Origin: a virus
Taxonomy: Duplodnaviria; Heunggongvirae; Uroviricota; Caudoviricetes
Virus record (IMG/VR): IMGVR_UViG_651053022_000004
Span: 1 to 64,000 of that record
Length of the DNA stretch: 64,000 nucleotides
Strand: one strand, 5' to 3'
The position numbers and the translations under genes are program-made. The notes below the pieces were generated by a model that did no database searches, was not told the DNA's origin, and saw nothing but the letters and a program-made list of their open reading frames with translations. Below, piece after piece: positions 25,643 to 58,701 of this stretch (positions within the stretch are counted from its first letter, which is position 1; each line of letters begins with the position of its first letter).

Positions 25643-26058
25643 GTTTTGCCCTGAAACTGGCGCGTGAGATGGGGCGACCCGACTGGCGTGCCATGCTTGC
25701 CGGGATGTCATCCACGGAGTATGCCGACTGGCACCGCTTTTACAGTACCCATTATTTTCATGATGTTCTGCTGGATATGCACTTTTCCGGGCTGACGTAC
25801 ACCGTGCTCAGCCTGTTTTTCAGCGATCCGGATATGCATCCGCTGGATTTCAGTCTGCTGAACCGGCGCGAGGCTGACGAAGAGCCTGAAGATGATGTGC
25901 TGATGCAGAAAGCGGCAGGGCTTGCCGGAGGTGTCCGCTTTGGCCCGGACGGGAATGAAGTTATCCCCGCTTCCCCGGATGTGGCGGACATGACGGAGGA
26001 TGACGTAATGCTGATGACAGTATCAGAAGGGATCGCAGGAGGAGTCCGGTATGGCTGA
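25624..26058 (+). CDS. T: T segment of the G-T tail assembly chaperone (made by -1 frameshift from G)
   Basis: -1-frame ORF (…FDGELSFALKLAREMGRPDWRAMLAGMSSTEYADWHRFYS...) matches lambda T. Confidence 0.9.
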   Translation: MFDGELSFALKLAREMGRPDWRAMLAGMSSTEYADWHRFYSTHYFHDVLLDMHFSGLTYTVLSLFFSDPDMHPLDFSLLNRREADEEPEDDVLMQKAAGLAGGVRFGPDGNEVIPASPDVADMTEDDVMLMTVSEGIAGGVRYG

Positions 26059-28612
26059 ACCGGTAGGCGATCTGGTCGTTGATTTGAGTCTGGATGCGGC
26101 CAGATTTGACGAGCAGATGGCCAGAGTCAGGCGTCATTTTTCCGGTACGGAAAGTGATGCGAAAAAAACAGCGGCAGTCGTTGAACAGTCGCTGAGCCGA
26201 CAGGCGCTGGCTGCACAGAAAGCGGGGATTTCCGTCGGGCAGTATAAAGCCGCCATGCGTATGCTGCCTGCACAGTTCACCGACGTGGCCACGCAGCTTG
26301 CAGGCGGGCAAAGTCCGTGGCTGATCCTGCTGCAACAGGGGGGGCAGGTGAAGGACTCCTTCGGCGGGATGATCCCCATGTTCAGGGGGCTTGCCGGTGC
26401 GATCACCCTGCCGATGGTGGGGGCCACCTCGCTGGCGGTGGCGACCGGTGCGCTGGCGTATGCCTGGTATCAGGGCAACTCAACCCTGTCCGATTTCAAC
26501 AAAACGCTGGTCCTTTCCGGCAATCAGGCGGGTCTGACGGCAGATCGTATGCTGGTCCTGTCCAGAGCCGGGCAGGCGGCAGGGCTGACGTTTAACCAGA
26601 CCAGCGAGTCACTCAGCGCACTGGTTAAGGCGGGGGTAAGCGGTGAGGCTCAGATTGCGTCCATCAGCCAGAGTGTGGCGCGTTTCTCCTCTGCATCCGG
26701 CGTGGAGGTGGACAAGGTCGCTGAAGCCTTCGGGAAGCTGACCACAGACCCGACGTCGGGGCTGACGGCGATGGCACGCCAGTTCCATAACGTGACGGCG
26801 GAGCAGATTGCGTATGTTGCTCAGTTGCAGCGTTCCGGCGATGAAGCCGGGGCATTGCAGGCGGCGAACGAGGCCGCAACGAAAGGGTTTGATGACCAGA
26901 CCCGCCGCCTGAAAGAGAACATGGGCACGCTGGAGACCTGGGCAGACAGGACTGCGCGGGCATTCAAATCCATGTGGGATGCGGTGCTGGATATTGGTCG
27001 TCCTGATACCGCGCAGGAGATGCTGATTAAGGCAGAGGCTGCGTTTAAGAAAGCAGACGACATCTGGAATCTGCGCAAGGATGATTATTTTGTTAACGAT
27101 GAAGCGCGGGCGCGTTACTGGGATGATCGTGAAAAGGCCCGTCTTGCGCTTGAAGCCGCCCGAAAGAAGGCTGAACAGCAGAGTCAACAGGACAAAAATG
27201 CGCAGCAGCAGAGCGATACCGAAGCGTCACGGCTGAAATATACCGAAGAGGCGCAGAAGGCTTACGAACGGCTGCAGACGCCGCTGGAGAAATATGCCGC
27301 CCGTCAGGAAGAACTGAATAAGGCCCTGAAAGACGGAAAAATCCTGCAGGCAGATTACAACACGCTGATGGCGGCAGCGAAAAAGGACTATGAAACGACA
27401 CTGAAAAAGCCGAAGCAGTCCGGCGTGAAGGTGTCTGCGGGCGATCGTCAGGAAGACAGTGCTCATGCTGCCCTGCTGACGCTTCAGGCTGAACTCCGGA
27501 CGCTGGAGAAGCATGCCGGAGCAAATGAGAAAATCAGCCAGCAGCGCCGGGATTTGTGGAAGGCGGAGAGTCAGTTCGCGGTACTGGAGGAGGCGGCGCA
27601 ACGTCGCCAGCTGTCTGTACAGGAGAAATCCCTGCTGGCGCATAAAGATGAGACGCTGGAGTACAAACGCCAGCTGGCTGCACTTGGCGACAAGGTTACG
27701 TATCAGGAGCGCCTGAACGCGCTGGCGCAGCAGGCGGATAAATTCGCACAGCAGCAACGGGCAAAACGGGCCGCCATTGATGCGAAAAGCCGGGGGCTGA
27801 CTGACCGGCAGGCAGAACGGGAAGCCACGGAACAGCGCCTGAAGGAACAGTATGGCGATAATCCGCTGGCGCTGAATAACGTCATGTCAGAGCAGAAAAA
27901 GACCTGGGCGGCTGAAGACCAGCTTCGCGGGAACTGGATGGCAGGCCTGAAGTCCGGCTGGAGTGAGTGGGAAGAGAGCGCCACGGACAGTATGTCGCAG
28001 GTAAAAAGTGCAGCCACGCAGACCTTTGATGGTATTGCACAGAATATGGCGGCGATGCTGACCGGCAGTGAGCAGAACTGGCGCAGCTTCACCCGTTCCG
28101 TGCTGTCCATGATGACAGAAATTCTGCTTAAGCAGGCAATGGTGGGGATTGTCGGGAGTATCGGCAGCGCCATTGGCGGGGCTGTTGGTGGCGGCGCATC
28201 CGCGTCAGGCGGTACAGCCATTCAGGCCGCTGCGGCGAAATTCCATTTTGCAACCGGAGGATTTACGGGAACCGGCGGCAAATATGAGCCAGCGGGGATT
28301 GTTCACCGTGGTGAGTTTGTCTTCACGAAGGAGGCAACCAGCCGGATTGGCGTGGGGAATCTTTACCGGCTGATGCGCGGCTATGCCACCGGCGGTTATG
28401 TCGGTACACCGGGCAGCATGGCAGACAGCCGGTCGCAGGCGTCCGGGACGTTTGAGCAGAATAACCATGTGGTGATTAACAACGACGGCACGAACGGGCA
28501 GATAGGTCCGGCTGCTCTGAAGGCGGTGTATGACATGGCCCGCAAGGGTGCCCGTGATGAAATTCAGACACAGATGCGTGATGGTGGCCTGTTCTCCGGA
28601 GGTGGACGATGA
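26051..28612 (+). CDS. H: Tape measure protein H
   Basis: 853-aa translation (MAEPVGDLVVDLSLDAARFDEQMARVRRHFSGTESDAKK...) matches lambda H. Confidence 0.97.
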   Translation: MAEPVGDLVVDLSLDAARFDEQMARVRRHFSGTESDAKKTAAVVEQSLSRQALAAQKAGISVGQYKAAMRMLPAQFTDVATQLAGGQSPWLILLQQGGQVKDSFGGMIPMFRGLAGAITLPMVGATSLAVATGALAYAWYQGNSTLSDFNKTLVLSGNQAGLTADRMLVLSRAGQAAGLTFNQTSESLSALVKAGVSGEAQIASISQSVARFSSASGVEVDKVAEAFGKLTTDPTSGLTAMARQFHNVTAEQIAYVAQLQRSGDEAGALQAANEAATKGFDDQTRRLKENMGTLETWADRTARAFKSMWDAVLDIGRPDTAQEMLIKAEAAFKKADDIWNLRKDDYFVNDEARARYWDDREKARLALEAARKKAEQQSQQDKNAQQQSDTEASRLKYTEEAQKAYERLQTPLEKYAARQEELNKALKDGKILQADYNTLMAAAKKDYETTLKKPKQSGVKVSAGDRQEDSAHAALLTLQAELRTLEKHAGANEKISQQRRDLWKAESQFAVLEEAAQRRQLSVQEKSLLAHKDETLEYKRQLAALGDKVTYQERLNALAQQADKFAQQQRAKRAAIDAKSRGLTDRQAEREATEQRLKEQYGDNPLALNNVMSEQKKTWAAEDQLRGNWMAGLKSGWSEWEESATDSMSQVKSAATQTFDGIAQNMAAMLTGSEQNWRSFTRSVLSMMTEILLKQAMVGIVGSIGSAIGGAVGGGASASGGTAIQAAAAKFHFATGGFTGTGGKYEPAGIVHRGEFVFTKEATSRIGVGNLYRLMRGYATGGYVGTPGSMADSRSQASGTFEQNNHVVINNDGTNGQIGPAALKAVYDMARKGARDEIQTQMRDGGLFSGGGR

Positions 28613-28938
28613 AGACCTTCCGCTGGAAAGTGAAACCCGGTATGGATGTGGCTTCGGTCCCTTCTGTAAGAAAGGTGCGCTTTGGTGATGGCTATTCTCA
28701 GCGAGCGCCTGCCGGGCTGAATGCCAACCTGAAAACGTACAGCGTGACGCTTTCTGTCCCCCGTGAGGAGGCCACGGTACTGGAGTCGTTTCTGGAAGAG
28801 CACGGGGGCTGGAAATCCTTTCTGTGGACGCCGCCTTATGAGTGGCAGCAGATAAAGGTGACCTGCGCAAAATGGTCGTCGCGGGTCAGTATGCTGCGTG
28901 TTGAGTTCAGCGCAGAGTTTGAACAGGTGGTGAACTGA
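28609..28938 (+). CDS. M: Minor tail protein M
   Basis: 109-aa translation (MKTFRWKVKPGMDVASVPSVRKVRFGDGYSQRAPAGLNANLKTY...) matches lambda M. Confidence 0.95.
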   Translation: MKTFRWKVKPGMDVASVPSVRKVRFGDGYSQRAPAGLNANLKTYSVTLSVPREEATVLESFLEEHGGWKSFLWTPPYEWQQIKVTCAKWSSRVSMLRVEFSAEFEQVVN

Positions 28939-29636
28939 TGCAGGATATCCGGCAGGAAACACTGAATGAATGCACCCGTGCGGAGCAGTCGGCCAGCGTG
29001 GTGCTCTGGGAAATCGACCTGACAGAGGTCGGTGGAGAACGTTATTTTTTCTGTAATGAGCAGAACGAAAAAGGTGAGCCGGTCACCTGGCAGGGGCGAC
29101 AGTATCAGCCGTATCCCATTCAGGGGAGCGGTTTTGAACTGAATGGCAAAGGCACCAGTACGCGCCCCACGCTGACGGTTTCTAACCTGTACGGTATGGT
29201 CACCGGGATGGCGGAAGATCTGCAGAGTCTGGTCGGCGGAACGGTGGTCCGGCGTAAGGTTTACGCCCGTTTTCTGGATGCGGTGAACTTCGTCAACGGA
29301 AACAGTTATGCCGATCCGGAGCAGGAGGTGATCAGCCGCTGGCGCATTGAGCAGTGCAGCGAACTGAGCGCGGTGAGTGCCTCCTTTGTACTGTCCACGC
29401 CGACGGAAACGGATGGCGCTGTTTTTCCGGGACGTATCATGCTGGCCAACACCTGCACCTGGACCTATCGCGGTGACGAGTGCGGTTATAGCGGTCCGGC
29501 TGTCGCGGATGAATATGACCAGCCAACGTCCGATATCACGAAGGATAAATGCAGCAAATGCCTGAGCGGTTGTAAGTTCCGCAATAACGTCGGCAACTTT
29601 GGCGGCTTCCTTTCCATTAACAAACTTTCGCAGTAA
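28938..29636 (+). CDS. L: Minor tail protein L
   Basis: 232-aa translation (MQDIRQETLNECTRAEQSASVVLWEIDLTEVGGERYFFCNE...) matches lambda L. Confidence 0.95.
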   Translation: MQDIRQETLNECTRAEQSASVVLWEIDLTEVGGERYFFCNEQNEKGEPVTWQGRQYQPYPIQGSGFELNGKGTSTRPTLTVSNLYGMVTGMAEDLQSLVGGTVVRRKVYARFLDAVNFVNGNSYADPEQEVISRWRIEQCSELSAVSASFVLSTPTETDGAVFPGRIMLANTCTWTYRGDECGYSGPAVADEYDQPTSDITKDKCSKCLSGCKFRNNVGNFGGFLSINKLSQ

Positions 29637-29640
29637 TCCC

Positions 29641-30069
29641 ATGACACAGACAGAATCAGCGATTCTGGCGCACGCCCGGCGATGTGCGCCAGCGGAGTCG
29701 TGTGGCTTCGTGGTGAGAACGCCGAAGGGGGAAAGATATTTTCCCTGCGTGAATATCTCCGGTGAGCCGGAGGCGTATTTCCGGATGTCGCCGGAGGACT
29801 GGCTGCGGGCAGAGATGCAGGGTGAGATTGTGGCGCTGGTCCACAGCCACCCCGGTGGTCTGCCCTGGCTGAGTGAGGCTGACAGGCGGCTGCAGGTGCA
29901 GAGTGATTTGCCGTGGTGGCTGGTCTGCCGGGGGGCGATTCATAAGTTCCGCTGTGTGCCGCATCTTACCGGGCGGCGCTTTGAGCACGGGGTGACGGAC
30001 TGTTACACGCTGTTCCGGGATGCTTATCATCTGGCGGGGATAAACCATAGAGCAGAATTATTTTTCTGA
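29641..30069 (+). pseudogene. K: Tail tip assembly protein K, truncated at a junction after codon ~133
   Basis: Product matches the full-length K paralogue at 49661-50404 up to ...TLFRDAYHLAG, then diverges to INHRAELFF-stop in AT-rich sequence. Confidence 0.85.
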
Positions 30070-34429: not shown

Positions 34430-34450
34430 GCGACCTTATTATCCATGCGC

Positions 34451-34621
34451 GGTATTGTCGCCGTATTCCTGCATTAACAGAGACCGCAGCCCGACAGGGA
34501 GACTCCTCTGCGCGAGTGTGCGGGGATAATCAAAAACGATACACACCGGGGTTTACCGCGTTAACGGAGCGCGGCGTTGTCCCCTCATAGTCGCCTGTCC
34601 GGTGCGATGGTGGAAGAAACC
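34451..34621. repeat. Repeat R2, copy B
   Basis: Aligns with 14126-14281; nested stems conserved with compensatory changes. Confidence 0.75.
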
Positions 34622-49660: not shown

Positions 49661-50404
49661 ATGACACAGACTGAATCAGCGATTCTGGCGCATGCCCGGC
49701 GGTGTGCGCCTGCGGAGTCGTGCGGCTTCGTGATAAGCACGTCGGAGGGGGAGTGGTATATCCCTTGTGTGAATATTTCTGCAGAGCCGGAGGCGTATTT
49801 TCGTATCGCACCGGAAGACTGGCTGCGGGCAGAGATGCAGGGGGAGATTGTGGCACTGGTCCACAGTCATCCCGGTGGGCTGCCCTGGCTGAGCGAGGCT
49901 GACCGGCGGCTGCAGATAAAAAGCGCACTGCCCTGGTGGCTGGTCTGCCGGGGTGACATTCACAAATTCCGCTGTGTGCCACATCTGACAGGACGGCGCT
50001 TTGAGCACGGGGTGACGGACTGTTACACGCTGTTCCGGGATGCTTATCATCTGGCGGGGACTGAAATGCCGGATTTTCATCGCGAGGATGACTGGTGGCG
50101 CAACGGTCAGAACCTTTACCTGGACAATATGGCGGTCACCGGCTTTTACCGGGTGCCCCTGTCCTCTGCACAGGCGGGCGATATTCTGCTGTGCTGCTTT
50201 GGTGCTTCGGTACCGAACCATGCCGCCATTTACTGCGGCAACGGTGAGCTGCTTCACCATCTGCCTGAACAACTGAGTAAACGGGAGAGGTATTCCGAAA
50301 AATGGCAACGACGAACGCATTCTGTCTGGCGTCACCGCCACTGGCACGCATCTGCCTTCACGGGGATTTACAACGATTTGGCCGCCGCCTCAGCCTGTAT
50401 GTGA
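49661..50404 (+). CDS. K: Tail tip assembly protein K-like (full length)
   Basis: 247-aa product MTQTESAILAHARRCAPAESCGFV...; full-length counterpart of the truncated K at 29641. Confidence 0.9.
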   Translation: MTQTESAILAHARRCAPAESCGFVISTSEGEWYIPCVNISAEPEAYFRIAPEDWLRAEMQGEIVALVHSHPGGLPWLSEADRRLQIKSALPWWLVCRGDIHKFRCVPHLTGRRFEHGVTDCYTLFRDAYHLAGTEMPDFHREDDWWRNGQNLYLDNMAVTGFYRVPLSSAQAGDILLCCFGASVPNHAAIYCGNGELLHHLPEQLSKRERYSEKWQRRTHSVWRHRHWHASAFTGIYNDLAAASACM

Positions 50405-50982
50405 ACACGGCAGCGGAAGCCATCCGGGCGCTGTCGTTACAGGTGCCGGGCTTTCGCCGTCAGATGAACGAAGGCTGGTACCAGATACGTATTGCCGGTT
50501 ATGACACGGCACCGGAGGCGGTGTACGCCCGTCTTCACGAACAGCTGGGTGAGGGAACGGTCATCCATATTGTGCCGCGACTGGCCGGGGCCGGAAAGGG
50601 TGGACTGCAGATTGTGCTGGGGGCGGCAGCCATCGTGGGCTCTTTCTTCACTGCCGGGGCATCAATGGCGTTATGGGGTTCAGCCCTGGCAGCCGGTGGT
50701 TTTTCTGCCACCACGATGCTGTTTTCACTTGGAGCCAGCATGATTCTGGGCGGTGTGGCCCAGATGCTGGCCCCGAAGGCAAAAACACCGGATTACCGCG
50801 CAACGGATAACGGCAGACAGAACACGTACTTTTCCTCGCTGGATAACATGATTGCCCAGGGGAACCCGATGCCGGTGCCTTACGGGGAAATGCTGGTTGG
50901 CTCCCGCCGTATATCCCAGGACATCAGCACCCGTGATGAAGGCGGGGGCGGAACGGTCGTGGTTATCGGGCGACAGGGATAA
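50302..50982 (+). CDS. I: Tail assembly protein I-like
   Basis: 226-aa translation (…ARICLHGDLQRFGRR…, …GASMILGGVAQMLAPKAKTP…) matches lambda I as I recall it. Confidence 0.9.
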   Translation: MATTNAFCLASPPLARICLHGDLQRFGRRLSLYVNTAAEAIRALSLQVPGFRRQMNEGWYQIRIAGYDTAPEAVYARLHEQLGEGTVIHIVPRLAGAGKGGLQIVLGAAAIVGSFFTAGASMALWGSALAAGGFSATTMLFSLGASMILGGVAQMLAPKAKTPDYRATDNGRQNTYFSSLDNMIAQGNPMPVPYGEMLVGSRRISQDISTRDEGGGGTVVVIGRQG

Positions 50983-50983
50983 A

Positions 50984-51021
50984 ACATAAAAAAATCCCGC
51001 AGTGATCGCGGAGCTGCGGGG
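50984..51021 (-). terminator. Candidate terminator at the left edge of the I-J intergenic insert
   Basis: Hairpin cccgcagtgatcgcggagctgcggg flanked by an A-run on the plus strand. Confidence 0.4.
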
Positions 51022-51189
51022 ACAGACAAATGAAGATCAATGTTAAGGAGTTGTTTTTGTTACTCGGGCAAAAAAACACTAACGCAGCGAAATTATAAGC
51101 GCCACAGTCAGTGTGTGAAAATGTGAAGATATTCAGAATTTTTATGCCATTACCGGTTTTAACCAACAGGATTATCGGTGGGCATGAAA

Positions 51190-51228
51190 GAAAACCCCGG
51201 TATCTGCTGATACCGGGGTTTCTCTTTA
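51190..51228 (+). terminator. Candidate terminator (10-bp perfect stem) in the I-J intergenic insert
   Basis: ccccggtatc-tgct-gataccgggg followed by tttctcttt, with A-run upstream (possibly bidirectional). Confidence 0.55.
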
Positions 51229-51324
51229 GCATGGCAGAAATGTGTTTCATGCTTTTCGGGCGAAGGATATCCGACTTCTGTACGGAATGGCAAGTGGCGG
51301 TTAATTTATTCAGGGGAAGGCTGT

Positions 51325-53517
51325 ATGGGAAAAGGTGGCGGTAAGGCACACACGCCTCGTGAGGCGAAGGATAATCTCAAATCCACGCAGATGATGAGCG
51401 TGATTGATGCGATTGGTGAGGGACCGATAGAAGGTCCGGTGAAGGGACTGCAGAGTATTCTGGTGAACAAAACCCCACTGACGGACACGGACGGCAATCC
51501 CGTGATACACGGTGTGACGGCGGTCTGGCGCGCCGGGGAGCAGGAGCAGACACCACCGGAAGGCTTTGAGTCCTCCGGAGCTGAAACCGGACTGGGCGTG
51601 GAAGTGACGAAGGCAAAACCGGTGACGCGCACCATTACGTCCGCGAACATTGACCGCCTGCGGGTTACCTTCGGGGTGCAGTCACTGGTGGAGACCACCT
51701 CAAAGGGTGACCGTAACCCGGCATCCGTCCGCCTGCTGATTCAGTTACAGCGTAACGGTAACTGGGTGACAGAAAAGGACGTCACCATTAACGGCAAGAC
51801 CACCTCACAGTTCCTGGCCTCGGTGATTCTGGATAATCTGCCTCCCCGGCCCTTTAACATCCGGATGGTCAGGGAGACGGCGGACAGCACCACGGACCAG
51901 CTGCAGAATAAGACGCTGTGGTCGTCATACACCGAAATCATCGATGTGAAACAGTGCTACCCGAACACGGCCATTGTGGGGCTGCAGGTGGATGCGGAGC
52001 AGTTCGGCGGCCAGCAGATGACGGTGAACTACCATATCCGCGGTCGCATCATCCAGGTGCCGTCAAACTATGACCCGGAAAAACGCACGTATAGTGGTAT
52101 CTGGGACGGCAGTCTGAAACCGGCATACAGCAACAACCCGGCCTGGTGTCTGTGGGACATGCTGACTCACCCGCGCTACGGCATGGGAAAACGTCTGGGG
52201 GCGGCGGATGTGGACAAGTGGGCGCTGTATGCCATCGGGCAGTACTGCGACCAGACGGTCCCGGATGGTTTCGGGGGGACCGAGCCGCGGATGACCTTTA
52301 ATGCGTACCTGGCACAACAGCGTAAGGCGTGGGACGTTCTCAGTGATTTCTGCTCTGCGATGCGCTGTATGCCGGTATGGAACGGTCAGACGCTGACGTT
52401 CGTTCAGGACCGCCCGTCGGATGTGGTGTGGCCGTACACCAACAGCGATGTGGTGGTGGATGATAACGGCGTGGGATTCCGCTACAGCTTCAGTGCCCTG
52501 AAGGACCGGCACACGGCGGTGGAGGTGAATTACACCGACCCGCAGAACGGCTGGCAGACCTCCACGGAACTGGTGGAAGACCCGGAAGCCATACTGCGCT
52601 ACGGACGCAACCTGCTGAAGATGGACGCGTTCGGCTGTACCAGCCGCGGTCAGGCCCACCGTGCCGGACTGTGGGTGATAAAGACCGAACTGCTGGAAAC
52701 GCAGACGGTGGATTTCACGCTCGGGTCTCAGGGGCTGCGGCACACACCCGGTGACATTATTGAAATCTGTGATAATGACTATGCCGGGACCCTGACCGGC
52801 GGACGTGTCCTGTCCATTGATGCTGCCACCCGCACCCTGACGCTGGACCGTGAGGTTACCCTGCCGGAGACAGGTACATCGGCGGTGAACCTGATTAACG
52901 GCAGCGGTAAGCCGGTGAGTGTGGACATCACCGCACACCCCGCGCCGGACCGGATACAGGTCAGTACCCTGCCTGATGGTGTGGAGACATACGGGGTGTG
53001 GGGACTCTCCCTGCCGTCACTGCGCCGTCGCCTGTTCCGCTGTGTCTCCATCCGGGAAAACACGGACGGCACCTTTGCCATCACGGCGGTGCAGCACGTA
53101 CCGGAAAAAGAAGCCATCGTGGATAACGGTGCCCGCTTTGAGCCGCAGTCAGGTTCCCTGAACAGCGTCATCCCACCGGCAGTGCAGCACCTGACGGTGG
53201 AGGTGAGCGCAGCTGACGGCCAGTATCTGGCGCAGGCGAAATGGGACACGCCGCGGGTGGTGAAGGGTGTGCGCTTCAGTCTGCGCCTGACCAGTGGTAA
53301 GGGAACGGATGCCAGACTGGTGACCACCGCCATCACCGCAGACACGGAGCACCGTTTCAGCGGCCTGCCGCTCGGGGAATACACCCTGACGGTGCGGGCG
53401 ATAAACAGCTATGGCCAGCAGGGTGAACCTGCCACCACCACCTTCCGGATTGCCGCACCGGCAGCACCGTCGCGGATTGAGCTGACGCCGGGCTATTTTC
53501 AGATAACTAAACGATAG
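51325..53517 (+). CDS. J: Host specificity/tail tip protein J, C-terminally truncated
   Basis: 730-aa product colinear with lambda J as I recall it up to …APAAPSRIELTPGYFQIT, then two codons and a stop supplied by repeat R1; the C-terminal third is absent. Confidence 0.85.
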   Translation: MGKGGGKAHTPREAKDNLKSTQMMSVIDAIGEGPIEGPVKGLQSILVNKTPLTDTDGNPVIHGVTAVWRAGEQEQTPPEGFESSGAETGLGVEVTKAKPVTRTITSANIDRLRVTFGVQSLVETTSKGDRNPASVRLLIQLQRNGNWVTEKDVTINGKTTSQFLASVILDNLPPRPFNIRMVRETADSTTDQLQNKTLWSSYTEIIDVKQCYPNTAIVGLQVDAEQFGGQQMTVNYHIRGRIIQVPSNYDPEKRTYSGIWDGSLKPAYSNNPAWCLWDMLTHPRYGMGKRLGAADVDKWALYAIGQYCDQTVPDGFGGTEPRMTFNAYLAQQRKAWDVLSDFCSAMRCMPVWNGQTLTFVQDRPSDVVWPYTNSDVVVDDNGVGFRYSFSALKDRHTAVEVNYTDPQNGWQTSTELVEDPEAILRYGRNLLKMDAFGCTSRGQAHRAGLWVIKTELLETQTVDFTLGSQGLRHTPGDIIEICDNDYAGTLTGGRVLSIDAATRTLTLDREVTLPETGTSAVNLINGSGKPVSVDITAHPAPDRIQVSTLPDGVETYGVWGLSLPSLRRRLFRCVSIRENTDGTFAITAVQHVPEKEAIVDNGARFEPQSGSLNSVIPPAVQHLTVEVSAADGQYLAQAKWDTPRVVKGVRFSLRLTSGKGTDARLVTTAITADTEHRFSGLPLGEYTLTVRAINSYGQQGEPATTTFRIAAPAAPSRIELTPGYFQITKR

Positions 53518-53582
53518 TTAAATGGATTGATGAAAATTAAAACTATATAGGTGGATGCTCAGCCTATCGGAGGTAGTCAGGA
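53508..53582. repeat. Repeat R1, copy B, forming the J truncation junction
   Basis: taaacgatagttaaatggattgatgaaaattaaaacta identical to 13990-14027. Confidence 0.8.
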
Positions 53583-53841
53583 TTTGAATGTCAGTCTGTT
53601 GTCGGCATTCTGGCAATGCAATTTGGATAAAGCGGGGATTAAAAAGATAGAGGCGAGCCGGTCAGGTAGAAATGAATCAGGCTCAAAGTGAAGCGGAAAA
53701 GGTCTGTGGCACAAGCTGATGCAGCCATAATTACAGCCTGATGATTTGTGGAATGAAACATGTTGAACCTCCTTAATTGATGTTATTCGAGTGATGAAGG
53801 CATTCTGTCCTTCTATAGTGTCCAGTAAATCAAACAGGAAA

Positions 53842-53863
53842 CTTGTCCAACGTGTTGGACAAG
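53842..53863. promoter_or_regulatory. Perfect 10-bp inverted repeat cttgtccaac-gt-gttggacaag (candidate protein-binding site)
   Basis: Palindrome in the noncoding junction between truncated J and the HNH gene. Confidence 0.35.
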
Positions 53864-53983
53864 CCTCTCCATTAGTGAGTTGTATTGATCACAACTCTAC
53901 AAAGAATTCATTACTGGGTAGATGAAAATAGTTTCACTATGAATGGAGGAGGCTATGTCGGTGGCTTCTTCATTGGAGTACAT

Positions 53984-54334
53984 ATGCCCCCACGAATCCC
54001 ACGCGCCTGCCGTAAGCGTGGATGTGCAGGTACAACCACAGACAGTTCTGGTTACTGCGATAAACATCGTGGCGAAGGATGGGTACAGCATCAACGCGGA
54101 CTGAGCCGCCACCAGCGTGGCTATGGCTCGAAATGGGATGCCATACGTGCGCGCATACTGAAGCGTGATAATCATCTGTGTCAGAACTGCCTGCGCAATG
54201 GGAGAGCCGTTGAAGCCAGAACTGTGGACCACATCATTCCGAAAGCTCATGGTGGCACGGATGCAGACAGTAACCTGCAGAGTCTGTGCTGGCCCTGTCA
54301 TAAAGCAAAAACAGCGCGCGAACGCATCAATTGA
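53984..54334 (+). CDS. HNH endonuclease (start at internal ATG) upstream of terS
   Basis: Product MPPRIPRACRKRGCAGTTTDSSGYCDKHRGEG... with …DHIIPKAHGG…N…CWPCH… motif arrangement. Confidence 0.8.
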   Translation: MPPRIPRACRKRGCAGTTTDSSGYCDKHRGEGWVQHQRGLSRHQRGYGSKWDAIRARILKRDNHLCQNCLRNGRAVEARTVDHIIPKAHGGTDADSNLQSLCWPCHKAKTARERIN

Positions 54335-54481
54335 TAACAGTTCCCATCTGTAGGGGAGGGGCAGGCCAAATCTCTGCAACCCTGGCTGCTCAGTACCGCC
54401 GCCTGACCTTTCCTCGCATCGCCGCAGGTTCGAAAACTTTTTTTTGGAATGTGATTAAATGATTGATAGGTAAAACCGATT

Positions 54482-54964
54482 ATGTCTGGACCCCCGAAAA
54501 CCCCGCCACGCCTGCATTTGATACGAGGCAACCCCTCAAAGCGGCCAGTTAAAGACCTCAAAAAAACCGCTAAAAAGGATGAAAAAGGTCTCCCTAAAAT
54601 TCCGCAACATTTAGGGGCGCAGGGGAAGTACTGGTTCAGGCGAATGGCGGAAGAGCTGAATGCGGAAGGGATCATTTCTCAGCTTGATGCGCGTGCGCTT
54701 GAGCTACTGGTGGAAGCCTATACCGAATACCGGCATCACTGCGAAACACTCGATGTTGAGGGGTACACCTACCGCTCGAAAACGCAGAACGGTGATGTGC
54801 TGATTAAGGCACACCCGGCTGCTGCGATGAAAGCGGATGCCTGGAAGCGGATCCGGGCGATGCTTGCAGAATTTGGTATGTCACCGGCAAGCCGGGCAAA
54901 AGTAAATACCGCCGGACCGGATAATGTTGATCCGCTGGCAGAGCTTTTAAAAGCGAGAGACTGA
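54482..54964 (+). CDS. Terminase small subunit (P27-like)
   Basis: 160-aa ORF directly upstream of and abutting the large terminase gene. Confidence 0.75.
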   Translation: MSGPPKTPPRLHLIRGNPSKRPVKDLKKTAKKDEKGLPKIPQHLGAQGKYWFRRMAEELNAEGIISQLDARALELLVEAYTEYRHHCETLDVEGYTYRSKTQNGDVLIKAHPAAAMKADAWKRIRAMLAEFGMSPASRAKVNTAGPDNVDPLAELLKARD

Positions 54965-56721
54965 TGGCAAAAGTGGCTGACGGGATCCGCTACGCCGAAC
55001 GTGTTGTTGCAGGAGAAATTGTTGCTGGCGAATTTGTCCGCCTGGCCTGCCAGCGTTTTCTTGATGATCTGAAGTACGGCGAAAAGCGGGGGATTTATTT
55101 CAGTGAACCCCGTGCGCAGCACATCCTGAATTTCTACAAATTTGTGCCTCATGTAAAAGGGGCACTGGCAGGCCAGCCCATTGAGTTGATGGACTGGCAT
55201 GTATTTATCCTCATTAATATTTTTGGTTTTGTCATTCCGCTGGTCAATGAAGAAACCGGGGAAGTTGTCATGCGCAGCGATGGCAGCGGACGTCCGGTGA
55301 TGGTGCGCCGGTTCCGGACGGCGTACAACGAAGTCGCCCGTAAAAACGCAAAATCAACCCTGTCATCGGGTATCGGCCTGTATATGACGGGGGCAGATAG
55401 TGAAGGCGGAGCTGAGGTGTATTCAGCCGCAACCACGCGTGACCAGGCCAGAATCGTGTTTGAAGACGCCAAAAATATGGTCAGAAAAGCCCGGTCGACA
55501 CTCGGGCGGTTGTTTGATTTCAACAAGCTGGCGATTTACCAGGAGCAGAGCGCATCAAAATTTGAACCGCTTTCCTCGGATGCAAACAACCTGGACGGTC
55601 TGAACATCCACTGCGCCATTATTGATGAGCTGCATGCACATAAAACCCGCGACGTGTGGGACGTTCTGGAAACGGCAACCGGTGCCCGTCTGCAGTCCCT
55701 GTTATTTGGTATCACCACGGCTGGCTTTAACAAGGAAGGGATTTGTTACGAGCAGCGTGATTACGCCATCAAGGTATTGCGAGGCTATAACAGCGACGTG
55801 GAGGGCGCTGTAAAAGACGACTCTTACTTTGCGATCATTTACACGCTTGATGAGGGAGATGATCCGTTTGATGAAACGGTCTGGCAGAAAGCGAATCCTG
55901 GCCTGGGCATCTGTAAACGCTGGGATGATCTGCGTCGTCTGGCGAAAAAAGCGAAGGAGCAGGTCTCTGCGCGGGTGAATTTTTTTACCAAACACATGAA
56001 TGTGTGGGTCACTGCCGAATCTGCCTGGATGGATATGATTAAGTGGGAGAAGTGCGAATACATTGCTCCACAACATGAGCTGAAAACATATCCCATGTGG
56101 GTCGGCGTCGACCTTGCTCATAAGATTGATATCTGTGCGGCGGCAAAACTCTGGCGAACCGATAACGGACATGTTCATGCTGATTTTAAATTCTGGCTTC
56201 CGGAAGGACGGCTGGAACGATGCTCGCGGCAGCAGGCAGAACTTTACCGGAAGTGGGCGGAGATGGATAAGCTCATCCTGACGGATGGTGATGTTATCGA
56301 TCATGCTCAGATAAAAAGTGACTTACTGGAATGGATTGGCGGTGAAAACCTCAGGGAACTGGGATTTGACCCGTGGAGCGCAATGCAGTTCAGTCTGGCA
56401 CTGGCTGAAGAAGGGATACCGCTGGTGGAGGTTCCGCAGACGGTCCGCAATCTGTCAGAGGCCATGAAGGAAACGGAATCACTGGTTTATGCCGGGCGTT
56501 TCCATCACAGCAATCATCCGGTCATGAACTGGATGATGTCTAACGTTACTGTAAAACCGGACAAAAACGACAACATCTTCCCGAATAAATCCACGCCGGA
56601 AGCCAAAATCGACGGCCCTGTTGCGCTTTTTACAGCCATGAGCCGCTTTCTGGTAAATGGCGGGGGCGTGAATGACTTTCTGTCCACGCTTGATCCTGAT
56701 GAGGACCTGTTAATTCTGTGA
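54964..56721 (+). CDS. Terminase large subunit
   Basis: 585 aa; Walker-A-like VARKNAKST; followed by the portal gene. Confidence 0.85.
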   Translation: MAKVADGIRYAERVVAGEIVAGEFVRLACQRFLDDLKYGEKRGIYFSEPRAQHILNFYKFVPHVKGALAGQPIELMDWHVFILINIFGFVIPLVNEETGEVVMRSDGSGRPVMVRRFRTAYNEVARKNAKSTLSSGIGLYMTGADSEGGAEVYSAATTRDQARIVFEDAKNMVRKARSTLGRLFDFNKLAIYQEQSASKFEPLSSDANNLDGLNIHCAIIDELHAHKTRDVWDVLETATGARLQSLLFGITTAGFNKEGICYEQRDYAIKVLRGYNSDVEGAVKDDSYFAIIYTLDEGDDPFDETVWQKANPGLGICKRWDDLRRLAKKAKEQVSARVNFFTKHMNVWVTAESAWMDMIKWEKCEYIAPQHELKTYPMWVGVDLAHKIDICAAAKLWRTDNGHVHADFKFWLPEGRLERCSRQQAELYRKWAEMDKLILTDGDVIDHAQIKSDLLEWIGGENLRELGFDPWSAMQFSLALAEEGIPLVEVPQTVRNLSEAMKETESLVYAGRFHHSNHPVMNWMMSNVTVKPDKNDNIFPNKSTPEAKIDGPVALFTAMSRFLVNGGGVNDFLSTLDPDEDLLIL

Positions 56722-56879
56722 AACAGCTTATTACTGATATGACCGGGCTGATCGGTTTCGGTCTGCTCACTGCTGGCGTTTATCTGTATGCAGGTCTGCC
56801 AGCGTCTCTGATGCTGTCTGGCTGTTTGTTGCTGCTTTATGCACTGGTGGTGTCCATGAGGAGAAAACATGCTTCTTGA
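56718..56879 (+). CDS. Small membrane protein (tentative)
   Basis: 53-codon ORF (GTG start) VKQLITDMTGLIGFGLLTAGVYLYAGLPASLMLSGCLLLLYALVVSMRRKHAS between terL and portal. Confidence 0.25.
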   Translation: MKQLITDMTGLIGFGLLTAGVYLYAGLPASLMLSGCLLLLYALVVSMRRKHAS

Positions 56880-58095
56880 TGCTCTGTTTCGCAGTGAGCC
56901 TCTGGAAAATCCCTCGGTTCCGGTAACCGGAGAGGCCGCAGAGACGGATAATATTTTTGCCCGGGATGTGTATGTCAGTCCGGAAACGTCCATGAGGCTG
57001 GCTGCTGTCTATGCCTGTATTTATGTTATTTCATCCAGTGTGGCTCAGATGCCCCTGCATGTGATGCGAAAAACGAATGAGCATGTTCAGCCGGCACGCG
57101 ATCACCCGTTGTTCTGGCTCGTTCATGATGAACCGAATGCCTGGCAGACCAGCTATAAGTGGCGGGAACTGAAGCAGCGTCATGTGCTGGGGTGGGGCAA
57201 TGGTTATACGTGGGTGAAACGTAATCGTCGTGGCGAGGTTACCAGTCTTGAATGCTGTATGCCATGGGAAACCACGTTACTTAACACCGGAGGGCGTCAT
57301 ACCTACGGTGTGTATAACGAAGAGGGTGCATTTGCGGTAAGTCCGGACGACATGATCCATATCAGGGCGCTGGGAAACAATCAGAAAATGGGACTGAGTC
57401 CGATCATGCAGCATGCTGAAACCATTGGTATGGGAATGAGTGGTCAGCAGTATACCAGTGCTTTTTTTAACGGTAATGCCCGTCCTGCCGGGATTATTTC
57501 TGTGAAAAATGAACTGAACGAACAGAGTTGGAGCAGGCTCAAGAATATGTGGCAGCGGGCGGTGACAGCGCTTCGCAGCCAGGAAAATAAAACCATGTTG
57601 CTGCCTGCGCAACTGGATTACCGCGCTCTGACAGTTTCTCCGGTGGATGCTCAGATCATTGATATGACCAAGCTGAACCGGTCGATGATTGCCGGGATTT
57701 TTAATGTCCCGGCGCACATGATTAATGACCTGGAAAAAGCCACATTTTCGAATATTACGCAGCAGGCGATTCAGTTTGTTCGCTACACGATGATGCCCTG
57801 GGTTGCGAACTGGGAGCAGGAGCTTAACCGTCGCCTGTTTACCCGTACAGAACGGGCTGCCGGGTATTACGTTCGTTTCAACCTCACGGGGTTGCTCCGT
57901 GGGACCCCACAGGAGCGTGCGCAGTTCTATCACTTTGCCATTACAGATGGCTGGATGAGTCGGAATGAAGCCAGGGCATTTGAGGATATGAACCCGGTTG
58001 ACGGTCTGGATGAAATGCTGGTCAGCGTAAATGCAGCAAATCCGTTGAATAACTTTAAAGATACGAAAGGCAAAGAGGAAAAGAACGATGAATGA
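56869..58095 (+). CDS. Portal protein (HK97-type)
   Basis: 408 aa; position after terL and before the prohead protease. Confidence 0.85.
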   Translation: MLLDALFRSEPLENPSVPVTGEAAETDNIFARDVYVSPETSMRLAAVYACIYVISSSVAQMPLHVMRKTNEHVQPARDHPLFWLVHDEPNAWQTSYKWRELKQRHVLGWGNGYTWVKRNRRGEVTSLECCMPWETTLLNTGGRHTYGVYNEEGAFAVSPDDMIHIRALGNNQKMGLSPIMQHAETIGMGMSGQQYTSAFFNGNARPAGIISVKNELNEQSWSRLKNMWQRAVTALRSQENKTMLLPAQLDYRALTVSPVDAQIIDMTKLNRSMIAGIFNVPAHMINDLEKATFSNITQQAIQFVRYTMMPWVANWEQELNRRLFTRTERAAGYYVRFNLTGLLRGTPQERAQFYHFAITDGWMSRNEARAFEDMNPVDGLDEMLVSVNAANPLNNFKDTKGKEEKNDE

Positions 58096-58687
58096 CCGTG
58101 AAACGCGCTGTTACAGCGGGGAGGTGCGGGCGGAACAATATGATAATGCCCCGACCCACATTCTGGGCTATGGCTCGGTATTTAACAGTCGTTCAGAACC
58201 TCTGTGGGGATTTCGTGAAATCATCAAGCCGGGGGCTTTTGATGATGTACTGAATGATGATGTACGTGGCTTGTTTAATCATGATCCTAATTTCATTCTC
58301 GGACGAAGTTCTGCCGGCACGTTGTCATTGTCGGTGGATGAACGCGGTTTACGTTATGACATTGTTGCACCGGATACTCCGACTATTTGTGACCTGGTGC
58401 TATCTCCAATGTTGCGTGGTGACATTAATCAGTCCTCGTTCGCGTTTCGTGTCGCCCGTGACGGAGAGAGCTGGTATGAAGACGACGAGGGGATTGTTAT
58501 CCGGGAAATCACGCGCATTTCTCGTCTGTATGACGTCAGCCCGGTGACATATCCGGCCTATCAGGACGCAGACTCTGGTGTCCGCTCAATGAAAGCCTGG
58601 CAGGAAGCGCGGGCGAGTGGTGCGCTGAAGAAAGCTGTTAACGAACGAATGGCGCGTGAGCGTCTTTTGACCCTTCTTAATGCATAA
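58088..58687 (+). CDS. Prohead protease (HK97-type)
   Basis: 199 aa between portal and capsid genes; similar to the N-terminal domain of the fusion ORF at 37811. Confidence 0.8.
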   Translation: MNDRETRCYSGEVRAEQYDNAPTHILGYGSVFNSRSEPLWGFREIIKPGAFDDVLNDDVRGLFNHDPNFILGRSSAGTLSLSVDERGLRYDIVAPDTPTICDLVLSPMLRGDINQSSFAFRVARDGESWYEDDEGIVIREITRISRLYDVSPVTYPAYQDADSGVRSMKAWQEARASGALKKAVNERMARERLLTLLNA

Positions 58688-58701
58688 GGATACTACTGAC
58701 G

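Follow-up and report, generated by a model that had tools for sequence, protein, structure and literature searches.

A lambdoid phage I–J tail gene gap that very probably pairs pasB, a published Hfq-dependent small RNA gene, with a separate pre-J hairpin segment

The closest described relative of the locus analysed here is PasB, a small RNA (sRNA) of Escherichia coli lambdoid prophages. PasB of the enteropathogenic E. coli (EPEC) strain E2348/69 (O127:H6) is an 83-nt RNA encoded on the minus strand of prophage PP6 (NC_011601.1 1466343..1466261; Pearl Mizrahi et al. 2021, PMC8550237, table S6), where it has been confirmed by northern blot and its 5' end has been estimated from read coverage together with the northern. 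The same study reports that PasB falls by a log2 value of -6.8 in activating medium and -2.4 in overnight static LB when hfq is mutated, that its 37 interactions on Hfq place it 15th in the RIL-seq network, and that it is less abundant in virulence-activating medium than in overnight static LB (PMC8550237). More recently, Zhu, Shabalina and Storz (2026, bioRxiv 10.64898/2026.05.13.724894) reported that it is encoded within the phage structural operon, antisense to the flanking genes I and J, proposed that a seed lies just upstream of the terminator, noted that the E2348/69 form is not the commonest, and described PasB-2, which differs from PasB by one change, at position 27. No target motif is reported for PasB, and neither Pearl Mizrahi et al. 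2021 nor Zhu et al. 2026 mentions a promoter or CRP. From O157:H7 Sakai, an enterohaemorrhagic strain (EHEC), Tree et al. (2014, PMC4104026) reported the Hfq-bound RNA EcOnc22 in prophage Sp15, with homologues EcOnc23 (Sp14) and EcOnc24 (Sp11); EcOnc22 is about 85 nt on a northern blot and is destabilized without Hfq.

Several other short RNAs are made by lambdoid prophages, namely HnrS (EcOnc10-12), PasA, PasC, PasD, svsR and StxS. Most of these bind or depend on Hfq and typically carry their own terminator, as pasB does, but they have no sequence in common with the pasB locus and are located elsewhere: HnrS between Rz and terminase, PasA, PasC and PasD near lysis and esterase genes, svsR at cI, and StxS after PR'. 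Two of them were considered as identities for the locus described below and were rejected. HnrS, a multicopy sRNA of prophage late regions, has its place between Rz and terminase and has no match in the DNA we analysed, and svsR/co293 is located at cI rather than between I and J.

This DNA, hereafter the window, is a 64,000-nt stretch of a Caudoviricetes genome (IMG/VR record IMGVR_UViG_651053022_000004). Tail assembly gene I (50302..50982, plus strand), taken from the open reading frame list, matches Pfam Lambda_tail_I with E = 2e-16, and tail tip gene J (51325..53517, plus strand) carries the Pfam domains FNIII-A_GpJ, Phage-tail_3 and Ig_J but is truncated at residue 730, compared with a full length of 1131 aa in one relative. 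Between the I stop codon TAA (50980-50982) and the J ATG (51325) lie 342 bp. The corresponding gap in lambda is 60 bp (from the I end at 15444 to the J start at 15505), so the initial annotation was right that the two genes are essentially adjacent there, and the extra DNA and two hairpins that it noticed are both confirmed by folding and by coordinates.

Two other junctions in the window deserve mention in their own right. In the region 53500-58700, the J reading frame ends at 53517 (residue 730) and the genes of a different phage begin at about 53505, with an HNH endonuclease, small and large terminase subunits, a portal protein and a prohead protease. No complete E. coli genome in our collection spans this J/terminase junction, the best places covering query bases 306-1001 only, and it is thus either an uncommon rearrangement or a join peculiar to the assembly from which the record was made. 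Another lambdoid tail module is found at 26051-30069; it includes a tape measure gene (26051-28612) and L (28938-29636) and breaks off inside K, its reading frame at 29599-30069 having a JAB domain only, without NlpC/P60. Because this module is broken inside K, it has no I-J junction and no second pasB. Furthermore, positions 34445-34620 share 96% identity with the DNA that immediately follows Rz in Sakai Sp9, and the next unit of Sp9, the 66-nt HnrS (2148-2213 of the Sp9 locus), is missing from the window.

On the strength of its sequence, we assign the left half of the gap (50988-51145) to pasB, a gene that is already known and has been published as PasB and as EcOnc22-24. We are highly confident that the gap as a whole consists of a minus-strand pasB with its own promoter and terminator on the left and, on the right, a separate pre-J allele with a terminator-like hairpin. 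The northern probe used for PasB (AATCCCGCAGTGATCGCGGAGCT) matches positions 50993-51015 exactly on the plus strand of the window, which places the PasB RNA on the minus strand. When the published 83-nt gene is mapped onto the window (50988..51070, minus strand), 82 of 83 nucleotides aligned to 51070..50988 are identical to E2348/69 PasB. The sole difference is at RNA position 27 (window position 51044), a change that fits the published PasB-2 variant, and the form seen in the window is also the commonest in our locus set (16 loci against 5). In E2348/69 the last base of I is 1466255 and the first of J is 1466496, with both genes on the plus strand. Its pasB has the same strand, the same site 6 nt past the I stop codon in the I-J gap, and the same promoter and minus-strand terminator, both of which are called there by scan. 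What differs is the J side of the promoter, where E2348/69 has a 77-nt short allele and the window a 179-nt long allele. No Rfam family matches anywhere in the window at gathering thresholds, and at E <= 10 the gap yields only sub-threshold, terminator-like noise and no family for pasB.

The initial annotation had suggested a small-RNA gene, which the exact probe match and the agreement at 82 of 83 positions with published PasB bear out. Its geometry needs revision. The proposed unit of about 160 nt, enclosed by two hairpins, gives way to a minus-strand RNA of 83 or about 98 nt (50988-51070 or 50988-51085) that does not fill the inter-hairpin space; hairpin 1 is the 3' terminator of PasB, and hairpin 2 lies outside pasB. 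A tiny moron transcription unit had also been proposed. The moron concept of lambdoid phages is said to go back to Juhala, Hendrix and colleagues in 2000. Like such morons, pasB forms a self-contained unit, complete with promoter and terminator, between genes that are nearly adjacent in lambda, and to that extent the term is apt. Unlike them, it is non-coding and oriented against the late operon, and no protein is supported.

Promoter prediction, which had been proposed as a check, finds a strong minus-strand site at 51119..51092 that matches 11 of 12 consensus positions, with a -35-like TTCACA (51119-51114), a 16-nt spacer and a -10 TATAAT (51097-51092). The -10 element is TATAAT, AATAAT, GATAAT or TATCAT in nearly all pasB variants and GATAAA in two. 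The near-invariant sequence GCGTTA begins 7 nt after the -10, which is the usual start distance, and it is 34 nt (33-35) from a conserved upstream box, discussed below, in all of about 50 distinct PasB-side sequences. Given this fixed geometry, we predict that the primary transcript starts at about 51085, at the G of GCGUUA, and is about 98 nt long (50988..51085, minus strand). The probable primary start is therefore 15 nt upstream of the published 5' end (51070). A U7 run immediately precedes the published end, which may have arisen by processing; if it did not, one of the two estimates is off.

Hairpin 1 corresponds to the intrinsic terminator of PasB (50988..51020, minus strand), its stem being formed by 51020-51014 and 51002-50996 and followed by U7 at 50994-50988. 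On the plus strand the same element reads as A7 (50988-50994) and CCCGCAG (50996-51002), which pairs with CTGCGGG (51014-51020). It folds at -15.1 kcal/mol (z = -3.2 against shuffles) and is called by the terminator scan on the minus strand only, followed by T7. Since the window maps to published PasB on the minus strand, hairpin 1 is PasB's own terminator, and it ends just 6 nt beyond the I stop codon. Of 22 aligned PasB variants, 21 have an unchanged stem and one has lost four pairs through a deletion, and the U tail varies at its last base only. An RNAalifold consensus supports the terminator alone, with no covariation. A conserved 5' hairpin in the 98-nt form, pairing the U-run with an A-run, was considered and rejected, as it appears in the single-sequence fold and not in the consensus fold.

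The remainder of the RNA is predicted to be largely unstructured, and most of it is variable among the aligned variants, indels included. Two short motifs are nearly invariant, however: AUCUUC (complement of 51032-51037) and CUCC (complement of 51047-51050). This conserved single-stranded stretch of the minus strand (51032..51050) is a candidate seed with anti-Shine-Dalgarno character. The 3' stem-loop and poly-U that serve as intrinsic terminator are also a predicted Hfq-binding site, and both are present in the window. We envisage a gene that reads from the J side to the I side in the order CRP-like box, sigma-70 promoter, start at about 51085, largely unstructured body and terminator, and whose RNA would act in trans by base-pairing, probably at ribosome-binding sites, via the conserved stretch upstream of the terminator.

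PasB might instead act mainly in cis, as an antisense RNA to the late mRNA at the I-J junction that tunes J and I after induction. This would suit a gene that keeps its place within the late operon throughout the loci examined and whose RNA is fully complementary to the sense transcript. However, RIL-seq assigns PasB 37 trans partners in lysogens, where the late genes are silent, and the strongest conservation is found in short motifs rather than along the entire antisense stretch. We therefore regard a mainly cis-acting role as unlikely, and continue to favour a trans-acting PasB.

The DNA between pasB and J has a separate character. Comparison with related I-J junctions, also proposed in the initial annotation, finds pasB in relatives and reveals two unrelated alleles between the box and J. 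The window carries the long allele (51149..51324, plus strand; 179 nt from the end of the box to J), which includes the J ribosome-binding site GGGGAAGG at 51313-51320. Its most prominent element is hairpin 2 (51191..51227), a perfect 10-bp stem in which CCCCGGTATC (51195-51204) pairs with GATACCGGGG (51209-51218) around a TGCT loop, flanked by AAAA (51191-51194) and TTTCTCTTT (51219-51227). This terminator-like hairpin should be usable on both strands, as it folds at -27.1 kcal/mol on the plus strand (z = -9.1) and -26.0 kcal/mol on the minus strand (z = -6.7) and occupies the site of the plus-strand terminator in other alleles; a simple terminator scan calls it on neither strand. It is preceded by hairpin A (51141..51188, plus strand), and the two together fold at -42.6 kcal/mol (z = -7.5). 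From hairpin 2 to J there are 96 nt, in which the J ribosome-binding site is located.

In 1442 E. coli records the long allele is found at 99% identity or more. Records with the long allele and records with the whole gap are equal in number (1450 each), so that the long allele never occurs without the pasB half. In a set of 137 loci containing AATGTGAAGAnnTTCAGAAnTTTTAT, drawn from IMG/VR as well as from phage records and E. coli genomes, about 46 carry the long allele, which is paired with at least four PasB variants, indicating that modules reassort at the box. Most relatives carry the short allele (76-100 nt), in which ACAGGCAyCC...GGrTGCCTGT is followed by TGTTTTT. This hairpin is called as a plus-strand terminator by scan in E2348/69 and shows compensatory changes at one pair (C-G in 52 loci, U-A in 22, U.G in 8 and C.A in 2). 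The idea of reading the hairpin's strand from the wobble states was dropped, since 8 U.G against 2 C.A is only suggestive. Between this terminator and the J ribosome-binding site, the heptamer CAGACAT is present in two, three or four tandem copies (e.g. at 2690-2740 of one locus, L002), and its copy number gives the 85-, 92- and 100-nt forms of the short allele among IMG/VR and phage loci. The I-J junction is a composite of reassorting modules, in which a PasB variant and the box are combined with either of the two pre-J terminator alleles.

Pre-J hairpins are not restricted to phages with pasB. The 60-bp gap of lambda has a hairpin and then a T-rich run before J, which a simple terminator scan does not call, and distant lambdoids of Enterobacter, Pantoea and Rahnella have a pre-J hairpin and lack pasB. 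In all of these, as in the window, a plus-strand G+C-rich hairpin is followed by a T-rich run and then by the J ribosome-binding site, although the sequences are unrelated and the hairpin in the window is longer, folds on both strands and is preceded by a second hairpin. Because comparable hairpins exist in lambda and in lambdoids without pasB, hairpin 2 is best read as the local form of a common pre-J hairpin rather than as one bracket of an sRNA gene. Its role would be to stop plus-strand transcription that has not been modified by Q before it reaches J. At least one natural copy can dispense with it: in one IMG/VR long-allele locus (the 132-nt form), a deletion of 47 bp between AGAAA repeats has taken out precisely hairpin 2, with hairpin A and the J-proximal part left in place.

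This segment might also hold a second sRNA besides pasB, either a minus-strand RNA of about 70 nt (approximately 51257-51186) or a plus-strand fragment made of hairpin A and hairpin 2. A minus-strand promoter-like sequence, TTGCCA-18-TATCCT, is found at 51293..51264, hairpin 2 has a good U-tract on the minus strand (UUUUCUUUC), and a 72-nt minus-strand fold is strong (z = -6.9). The promoter match is weak at 9 of 12 positions, however, such an RNA is absent from annotations and papers on these loci, and one natural variant has lost hairpin 2. The near-invariant long allele yields little variation for comparison. We consider a second sRNA quite unlikely, and retain the reading of the right half as a pre-J allele with its own terminator-like hairpin.

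The box at which the modules meet is a 22-bp CRP-like sequence, AAATGTGAAGATATTCAGAATT (TGTGA-N6-TCAGA; 51119..51140, centre 51129.5). Compared with TGTGA-N6-TCACA, it matches at 14 of 16 specified bases, and no other site in the 64 kb comes within two mismatches of AAATGTGAnnnnnnTCACATTT, against an expectation of 0.03 matches. Among 16 PasB-bearing loci fetched independently, all differences in the box are confined to the two central spacer positions and a single flank position, and sequence conservation is established for these loci only, as the box was the search pattern elsewhere; the IMG/VR loci in particular were picked by it, so that the larger set shows fixed spacing and three wildcard letters rather than box conservation. 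The distance from box to -10 is fixed in all 124 measurable loci. Variation confined to the central spacer and one flank position would be given by a dimeric DNA-binding protein. The box centre is at about -44.5 from the predicted start (51085) and -59.5 from the published 5' end (51070), in comparison with -41.5 for class II and -61.5 for class I sites; the first value comes near the class II distance, and neither agrees exactly. We tentatively suggest a putative cAMP-CRP site, an identification that we offer as a possibility and on balance doubt; the higher PasB level in overnight LB is compatible with CRP control. This detail of the locus may be new.

Alternatively, the conserved stretch at 51119-51145 might have nothing to do with CRP and might serve as the seed for a plus-strand RNA that originates in the 3' UTR of I and ends at the pre-J terminator, or simply as a module-exchange boundary. 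It is A/U-rich and a terminator with a U tail follows immediately, an arrangement typical of Hfq-binding RNAs, and PasB variants and pre-J alleles reassort exactly there. Against these points, the 16 independent loci vary at just two central spacer positions and one flank position, the distance to the -10 is fixed, and the Hfq peaks reported at these loci are on the antisense strand only. Such explanations seem distinctly improbable to us, and we keep the box as a candidate protein-binding site upstream of pasB, with CRP as the putative protein.

A transcription unit on the other strand, in the form of a small transcript or a tiny coding moron that lies between the hairpins and ends at hairpin 2, is very improbable. 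Hairpin 2 does have a U-rich tail on the plus strand, the segment 51140-51228 folds strongly (z = -7.5), and there is a weak likeness to a two-hairpin sRNA of the Rfam type (E = 0.039, far below the gathering score). However, our scan found no plus-strand promoter-like site in the gap, and the A/T run precedes rather than follows hairpin 1 on this strand. The coding version fares no better. The initial annotation gave the longest open reading frame as 22 codons (51030-51098), but a 28-aa frame (51040-51126) also lies between the hairpins and a 77-aa GTG frame (51111-51344) crosses hairpin 2 into J; its view that none is convincing holds. The 22-aa frame keeps its ATG in 70 of 124 loci, with ACG or ACA in the other 54, and ranges from 12 to 50 aa in length. 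A PHROG search of small reading frames on both strands returned no family match, and small proteins in the gap were rejected, there being no PHROG family and no conservation of a reading frame. A type I toxin-antitoxin pair, with the frame at 51030-51098 as toxin and PasB as antisense antitoxin, is barely credible and largely refuted, for although PasB is fully complementary to this frame and a possible ribosome-binding site (GGGGA) is found upstream of it, the start codon is lost in those 54 loci, the peptides resemble one another over the first 4-9 residues only and lack hydrophobic character, and no family matches.

Finally, the insert does not behave as a common mobile repeat, the origin that the initial annotation had set against its own reading. 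A dispersed repeat (REP, IS or MITE) was rejected on finding a single copy in the window and a median of one place per genome, and in every locus with examined annotation the gap DNA is situated between I and J. An apparent 'second place' in phage records was the hairpin 2 palindrome matching itself.

EcOnc22, EcOnc23 and EcOnc24 allow the comparison to be extended to EHEC. In Sakai, each of the three Hfq peaks maps to an I-J gap, opposite in strand to the tail genes. The coordinates of Tree et al. 2014 refer to NC_002695.1, and the record we compared, NC_002695.2, is shifted by about +128 at 1.78 Mb, an offset to allow for in locating any EcOnc RNA. The calibration came from HnrS (EcOnc12), whose 66-nt promoter and terminator unit with CUUCU is located about 128 nt to the right of its published peak in NC_002695.2. 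We take the length of NC_002695.1 to be 5,498,450 bp, and the difference to NC_002695.2 would then equal the 128-nt shift. With this correction, which was measured at 1.78 Mb and thus away from the EcOnc22-24 sites, the EcOnc22 peak spans the PasB homologue's body as far as the terminator (1143-1203 of the corresponding Sakai locus, L006, in NC_002695.2). From the shifted peak we infer that EcOnc22-24 of EHEC and PasB of EPEC are one locus family. The EcOnc loci, like pasB, are Hfq-bound and antisense in the I-J gap, and they have in common with it the terminator stem, the AAUCUUC motif, the box and the promoter geometry. They differ in having about 74% identity over the first 166 bp, a body 6 nt shorter and AATAAT as the -10.

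DNA matching the gap is present in approximately 1600 of 5426 complete E. coli genomes. A search with protein I across genera returned only E. coli-type copies, some of them in evidently contaminated assemblies, and distant lambdoids that lack pasB. Contigs labelled Streptomyces flavalbus, Parendozoicomonas haliclonae and Clostridiales MAG (L016, L018 and L025) carry an E. coli-type I (90-98% aa identity) followed by pasB, and in these the gene is probably assembly contamination. One E. coli genome (NZ_CP032791.1, L028) has a deletion from inside I to the 3' half of hairpin 2 that removes pasB; its J is also frameshifted, and these two lesions mark it as a decaying prophage.

Given that pasB is a known gene, it seems appropriate to consider what this analysis contributes. 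Its main value is in annotation, and we expect that the additions will not surprise a specialist. Annotation of pasB is absent from every public record examined, and a few place an unsupported open reading frame over the gap. As long as pasB has no Rfam family and is left unannotated, readers of sequence will keep rediscovering it as an odd insert. To the published picture we make small additions, namely the link between PasB and EcOnc22-24, the predicted upstream start, the CRP-like box, and the reassorting modules with a two-allele pre-J terminator. The box, at its fixed distance from the promoter, gives a testable idea on the timing of PasB synthesis: if it is a cAMP-CRP site, this prophage sRNA would report the carbon state of the host.
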